From: Escherichia coli | GTDB taxonomy: Bacteria; Pseudomonadota; Gammaproteobacteria; Enterobacterales; Enterobacteriaceae | DNA length: 23,984 bases | Direction: 5' to 3' (one strand) | Assembly (NCBI RefSeq): GCF_003334305.1 | Contig: NZ_QOWS01000038.1 | Shown here: positions 19,046-19,200 of the stretch, one piece after another | Layout of the letters: each line of letters starts with the position of its first letter | Position numbering within the stretch: the first letter of the stretch is position 1 | Notes under the pieces: generated by a model | What the model was told of the DNA's origin: nothing | The model's database searches: none | The model's input: the letters and a program-made list of their open reading frames with translations, nothing else | Made by a program: the position numbers and the translations under genes

Positions 19046-19200
19046 TTAACTCAAACCGAGTTGTTTCAGGATTGCTTTACGCAGGGGTGACGCGGCATGA
19101 CACTGCGCCTCCCATGAGACCTGAGTTTCAAATGGTTGCTGCCATTCGCTACATCGACGCCCTGAGATTCGAGCCAACGTCTGAACTCGCTTTGTTTCAC
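19046..19200 (-). pseudogene. hicA: hicA toxin gene disrupted by a frameshift (apparent 22-nt deletion)
   Basis: From GTG 19198-19200 (GGGAGG Shine-Dalgarno upstream) the frame reads MKQSEFRRWLESQGVDVANGSNHLKLRSHGRRSVMPRHPCVKQS then stops at 19066-19068. The conserved HicA C-terminus PLRKAILKQLGLS is encoded in a different frame ending at 19046. Recalled intact HicA reads ...PRHPCDEIKEPLRKAILKQLGLS. Confidence 0.7.

Follow-up and report, generated by a model that had tools for sequence, protein, structure and literature searches.

The hicAB toxin-antitoxin locus in a 23,984-nucleotide (nt) stretch of an Escherichia coli genome (contig NZ_QOWS01000038.1, hereafter the window) carries a hicA toxin gene that has lost 22 nt and an intact hicB antitoxin gene. 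The short hicA allele is real, inherited, and widespread, because its junction occurs in 811 independently assembled genomes and the carriers have lineage-specific secondary mutations. With high confidence, we interpret it as a vertically inherited null allele that arose through a 22-bp microhomology-mediated deletion and has drifted since, with hicB and the operator left intact. The locus is an ordinary, already annotated pseudogene and a common E. coli allele.

The hicA pseudogene occupies positions 19046..19200 on the minus strand and measures 155 nt, compared with 177 nt in the K-12-type gene. Over all 23,984 nt, the window had 100% identity with the chromosome of E. coli A7, a strain obtained from orangutan faeces, and the lesion is already recorded in RefSeq as a frameshifted pseudogene. 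Feature AOY58_RS10970 of the Prokaryotic Genome Annotation Pipeline (PGAP) in A7, named 'mRNA interferase; frameshifted' and flagged as a pseudogene, spans exactly 19046-19200, and these are also the bounds given in a preliminary description of the window that was made from the letters alone. A residual 44-codon open reading frame (ORF; 19066..19200, minus strand) starts with GTG at 19200 and ends with TGA at 19068-19066. Its 40 native HicA codons encode MKQSEFRRWLESQGVDVANGSNHLKLRSHGRRSVMPRHPC and are followed by VKQS and the stop. These 40 codons matched K-12 except for F28S, where codon 28 (19119-19117) has changed from TTT to TCT at base 19118. The last 13 hicA codons (PLRKAILKQLGLS) and the original stop TAA at 19048-19046 survive in the -1 frame as an out-of-frame remnant of the hicA 3' end (19046..19087, minus strand) that formerly encoded most of helix alpha2. 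Both the sequence and the ORF list show this second frame ending in ...SPLRKAILKQLGLS. A literature search for a description of the 22-nt-deleted hicA allele found none beyond a general statement on the loss of hicAB in phylogroup B2.

Alignment of the window to hicA of a K-12-like O16:H48 strain contained a single gap of exactly 22 nt at the junction, in agreement with the preliminary description of a hicA gene split by a 22-nt deletion that puts the N-terminal 40 and C-terminal 13 residues in different frames. At this point the sequence is CACCCC-TGCGATGAGATTAAAGAACCAT-TGCGTAAAG in the long allele and CACCCC-TGCGTAAAG in the short one. Five placements of the deletion are equivalent, which corresponds to 4 nt of exact microhomology, TGCG. 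The ancestral allele has two TGCG copies 22 nt apart, as seen in the long allele of strain 0-4, the nearest haplotype (TGCG, 18 nt, TGCG), and the short allele keeps a single copy, which marks the deletion junction at 19080..19083 on the minus strand. The lesion therefore has a direct repeat at both ends and one copy left at the junction, as defines a microhomology-mediated (slippage) deletion. Slippage or microhomology-mediated deletion is the natural mechanism because junction homology of at least 4 nt is expected in just ~1.6% of random deletions, assuming equal base frequencies. The preliminary proposal of a slippage-like loss between direct repeats thus stands, with a correction to the repeat itself: the 'CCCTGCG-like' sequence is exact only over TGCG (CCCTGCG vs CCATTGCG).

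We searched complete E. coli genomes for the junction using a 53-nt query with an E-value limit that half-matches could not reach. Junction-specific matches occurred in 811/5,426 genomes (~15%), all annotated as 'mRNA interferase', and 612 of the 811 had one mismatch within the query. A 180-nt query centred on the junction assigned 814 genomes to the short form (at least 95% identity) and 3,442 to the long form (80-90% identity, owing to the 22-nt gap). The short allele makes up ~19% of the complete genomes that retain hicAB. Carriers came from varied hosts and countries and included 55989, O104:H4, O45:H2, O91, and O8:H8. The same lesion is present in independent assemblies together with later lineage-specific mutations that define R7*, S21R, F28S, and P39S sub-alleles, the pattern of an inherited pseudogene. 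Two of the 811 matches were on records classed as plasmids, which may be replicons assigned wrongly or large plasmids that carry a chromosomal segment.

To place the deletion among E. coli haplotypes, 3.05 kb around hicA was aligned for nine short-allele and nine long-allele genomes, taken at even steps down the hit ranking so that the sample was spread across it. The short alleles differed pairwise at 1-13 sites, and all nine lay on one flanking haplotype, closer to each other than to eight of the nine long alleles. The nearest full-length relative was strain 0-4, with 13 differences from A7 and just two beside hicA. K-12-like sequences had 19-24 differences from the short alleles and other lineages had 40-88. 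The long form is ancestral because all distant lineages sampled carry it and only the long form spans the whole Pfam model of the toxin. These alignments indicate that the deletion most likely arose once, on the haplotype nearest strain 0-4.

Variation among the nine short alleles was concentrated in the hicA remnant. Its 155 nt contained four variable sites, all of them amino acid-changing (R7stop, S21R, F28S, and P39S). The 417 nt of hicB had one variable site, which was synonymous; the 3' part of rlhA had three in 858 nt (one nonsynonymous, two synonymous); the 5' part of ydcR had four in 930 nt (one nonsynonymous, three synonymous); and yncJ had none in 231 nt. The difference between the remnant (4/155 nt) and these four intact neighbouring coding stretches (8/2,436 nt) was significant (Fisher p = 0.004), and in this small sample (9/811 carriers) a comparison with hicB alone gave Fisher p = 0.02. 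The excess in the remnant looks like the pattern of a drifting pseudogene beside constrained genes. F28S is carried by the window's copy and the R7* nonsense codon by the O104:H4 lineage, where the stop at codon 7 indicates that the hicA remnant is not being maintained. Among the nine long-allele genomes, nonsynonymous to synonymous counts were 9:6 in hicA, 7:21 in hicB, 4:36 in rlhA, and 5:39 in ydcR, which suggests weak constraint on the hicA toxin gene across E. coli, even among intact alleles.

At the protein level, the truncated product matched the Pfam family HicA_toxin (PF07927) only over model positions 3-40 of 58 (E = 0.075, 13.6 bits), compared with positions 3-58 for the full-length K-12-type protein (E = 3.7e-7, 30.6 bits). 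Having lost alpha2, it does not qualify as a member of this family of ribonucleases (RNases) that adopt the dsRBD fold (dsRBD: double-stranded RNA-binding domain). The structure of E. coli HicA (PDB 6HPB chain A) aligned only to residues 1-41 of the short product. In a single-sequence AlphaFold model, full-length K-12 HicA was predicted to have helices at residues 3-12 and 44-55 and strands at 16-19, 23-28, and 31-36, a topology that agrees with the published dsRBD topology (PMC10865869). By this model, the frameshift after residue 40 takes away all of the predicted helix alpha2 (residues 44-55). A 58-residue domain deprived of one of its two sheet-packing helices should not be able to fold, and because the frameshift takes helix alpha2 out of the dsRBD fold, the toxin of the short allele is very probably dead. 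The conserved catalytic residue of E. coli HicA is His23 (PMC10865869, PMC11594946). The short product keeps the GSNH motif at residues 20-23, including the catalytic histidine and the glycine that precedes it (Gly22, His23). A scan of the truncated HicA, full-length HicA, HicB, and a 64-amino-acid ORF discussed below against NCBIfam returned no family for any of them, the intact proteins included, and was uninformative. With hicA frameshifted and hicB intact, the locus does not have both genes intact in one operon, as a functional type II toxin-antitoxin module does.

The antitoxin half of the locus was unaltered. hicB (18584..19000, minus strand) encodes an intact antitoxin/repressor of 138 amino acids, WP_001270286.1, the identical accession found in the K-12-like O16:H48 strain and in O157:H7. 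It matched the Pfam families HicB_lk_antitox at residues 3-67 (E = 1.1e-7) and HTH_3 at residues 88-134 (E = 2.6e-7), as a full-length HicB antitoxin does. The 120 nt upstream of hicA (19201..19320, minus strand), which comprise the area of promoters P1 and P2 and the hicA Shine-Dalgarno sequence GGAGG, aligned to the K-12-like sequence without change. They include a perfect 7+7 inverted repeat, GTAAACA-N4-TGTTTAC, at 19233..19250, 33 nt upstream of the hicA start. The hicO operator is an inverted repeat bound by HicB dimers (PMC10865869), and by its form and position the palindrome is a candidate hicO operator of promoter P2. The ORF list, the HicB accession, and the alignment together bear out the earlier picture of a 44-codon truncated toxin next to an intact hicB and palindrome. 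A promoter and terminator scan of 18950-19430 gave matches no more numerous than those in shuffled sequence.

Published work on hicAB describes a two-promoter model with P1 and P2 (PMC11594946, PMC10865869). P1 has a CRP-S site and gives both proteins; the two reviews differ on its control, one calling it Sxy-activated and the other constitutive during steady-state growth (PMC11594946, PMC10865869). P2 is repressed by HicB at hicO and yields HicB only, and excess HicA relieves the repression (PMC11594946, PMC10865869). HicB from the short-allele locus is presumably still made and still represses P2. Since hicB and all these DNA elements are unchanged, the expected state would be a constant, low supply of HicB that keeps P2 repressed, with neither a toxin to bind nor a signal for derepression.

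Our favoured explanation begins in an ancestor with a B1-type local haplotype, in which the 22-bp segment between the TGCG repeats would have been lost by replication slippage. The resulting frameshift after codon 40 would have replaced residues 41-58 with VKQS, and the product, which retains Gly22 and His23, would yet not fold into an active RNase. The pseudogene would have drifted afterwards, as with F28S in the window's copy, while hicB, the operator, and the promoters stayed untouched, and the locus would show a chromosomal toxin-antitoxin module at one stage of ordinary decay. Some points pull against this account. The truncated ORF retains its start codon, Shine-Dalgarno sequence, helix alpha1, three beta strands, and His23; the AlphaFold model that supplies the secondary structure is of only moderate confidence (predicted local distance difference test score, pLDDT, 69); and the single origin was read from 9/811 genomes and a 3-kb local alignment. 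A residual HicB-binding peptide from the short allele is formally possible, and is conceivable because the retained beta sheet is the surface that contacts HicB (PMC10865869). The same retained features would serve a short allele that still gives a working or regulatory product, either a 44-amino-acid peptide that binds HicB or has RNase activity, or a HicA protein without residues 40-46 made by a -1 slip on C-CCC-U (CAC CCC TGC). If tRNA-Pro slipped by -1 on the window's CCCC run, the reading would be HP-LRKAILKQLGLS. We consider such products very unlikely. The stop at codon 7 in the O104:H4 lineage and the amino acid changes at all four polymorphic sites of the remnant argue against either kind, and a slipped protein would still be without the N-terminus of alpha2 and the preceding loop. 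The site has no slippery heptamer and no evidence for a stimulatory structure, and a CACTCC mismatch breaks the C run in 7/7 sampled members of the one-mismatch class, which accounts for 612/811 carriers. Recoding is not conserved, because of CACTCC in these sampled carriers and the early stop in some carriers, and we rejected programmed -1 frameshifting on the CCCC run on these grounds. No reference allele of identical sequence was found to encode a functional protein, and nothing suggests that the short allele is functional.

The remaining alternatives concern how the deletion came to be in the window and why hicB has stayed. The preliminary description left the choice between a strain-specific inactivation and a sequencing or assembly error, and the same junction in 811 complete genomes makes it neither. 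An error that conceals a full-length 177-nt hicA has only its prior possibility in its favour, as indels are a common artefact, though usually of 1-2 nt in homopolymers. Base calling does not typically produce a 22-nt loss with a direct repeat at its bounds, the identical junction has come from many laboratories and platforms, and the carriers form sub-lineages with their own secondary mutations, so that an error is practically out of the question. A recent inactivation in the window's isolate deserves no more credence: F28S is confined to a subset of carriers and 114 genomes were at least 99% identical over the 180-nt query, but the deletion itself is common to all 811 genomes from varied hosts and countries. 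It is improbable, to a lesser degree, that the TGCG repeats are a slippage hot spot at which the 22-bp deletion arose several times independently. Microhomology-mediated deletions can recur and the locus has suffered other independent lesions (an IS1 insertion and the large deletion in ST131/B2), but one flanking haplotype is common to all nine short alleles sampled, and a repeat of 4 nt makes a weak hot spot. Rather less improbable, though still doubtful, is that selection maintains hicB on its own, as an anti-addiction antitoxin against plasmid or phage HicA or as a transcription factor with other targets, with the loss of hicA perhaps itself advantageous. The HicB protein was the same in 9/9 sampled short-allele genomes, and the p = 0.02 from the one comparison between the remnant and hicB is a hint of selective retention of the orphaned gene; a short time since the deletion could explain the conservation of hicB equally well.

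The closest known system is hicAB of K-12 (hicA, b4532), which lies at the same chromosomal position between yncJ and ydcR and has an identical HicB and an identical 120-nt upstream region. The window's hicA differs in being without the 22 nt, shifted after codon 40, and deprived of alpha2, which makes the toxin half a pseudogene. A different lesion is found in ~1,160 complete genomes, in which a 451-nt query was matched over its initial 106 nt only; there, hicA and the 5' half of hicB are gone by a larger deletion. In strain 4993 of sequence type ST131 (NZ_CP103557.1, 1590-1850 of the extracted locus), the deletion starts within the palindrome (GGAGGTAAAC/TTCGCC...) and reaches approximately codon 60 of hicB; what is left of hicB is a 237-nt pseudogene. 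Phylogroup B2 has been reported to have lost hicAB (bioRxiv 10.1101/486399), and the match pattern of the ~1,160 genomes is consistent with that report. The B2 loss, of which ST131 is an example, resembles the window in that the same locus was inactivated by deletion, but the B2 lesion is much larger, removing the toxin and disabling the antitoxin, whereas the window's lesion hits the toxin only. Separately, in E. coli WP7-S17-ESBL-04 (NZ_AP022177.1, 1472-2887 of the extracted locus) IS1A lies between the hicA 3' end and hicB and gives an altered 'HicA family toxin' ORF of 64 amino acids. The three independent lesions (22-bp deletion, IS1 insertion, and large B2 deletion) fit the view that chromosomal hicAB is dispensable in E. 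coli.

As is general for orphan antitoxins and for chromosomal toxin-antitoxin loci in decay, the toxin in the window was lost first, an intact autoregulated antitoxin was left, and the remnant gathers mutations. Compared with such loci the window has nothing distinctive and is a textbook example, notable only for its frequency in the population. Its general biological weight is small, and it offers a clean, datable example of decay that begins with the toxin, through a small deletion by slippage, and leaves the antitoxin in place. The short allele is also a stable marker of lineage, carried by ~15% of complete E. coli genomes, enteroaggregative 55989 and O104:H4 among them, and results on HicAB from K-12 are not transferable to strains that carry it.

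The deletion also created a chimeric ORF of 64 amino acids at 19240..19046 on the minus strand, in which an overlapping out-of-frame ORF is fused to the last 13 hicA codons. Its ATG start falls within the palindrome, and GGAGG precedes it by 9 nt. At least 1,000 deposited contigs have the exact 64-amino-acid sequence as a 'hypothetical protein', and 44-amino-acid 'HicA family' fragments have been deposited too. Gene callers other than PGAP often mis-annotate the locus in the former way. We rejected this ORF as a new gene, as the corresponding frame stays open for just 53-56 codons in long alleles and for 32 in strain EBJ001; comparison of the alleles suggests a chance ORF whose annotation is an artefact.

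A search of the whole window against Rfam at gathering thresholds found nothing. By the A7 annotation, the gene order of the window is yncH-ansP-pqqU-mcbR-ortT-patD-ydcSTUV-ydcR-hicB-hicA-yncJ-rlhA-sutR-ydcO. The same annotation places an orphan toxin gene, ortT, at 10946-11119, and shows the window bounded, at its two ends (1-533 and 23621-23984), by a vgrG gene of type VI secretion on one side and a gene of the insQ/TnpB family on the opposite side.
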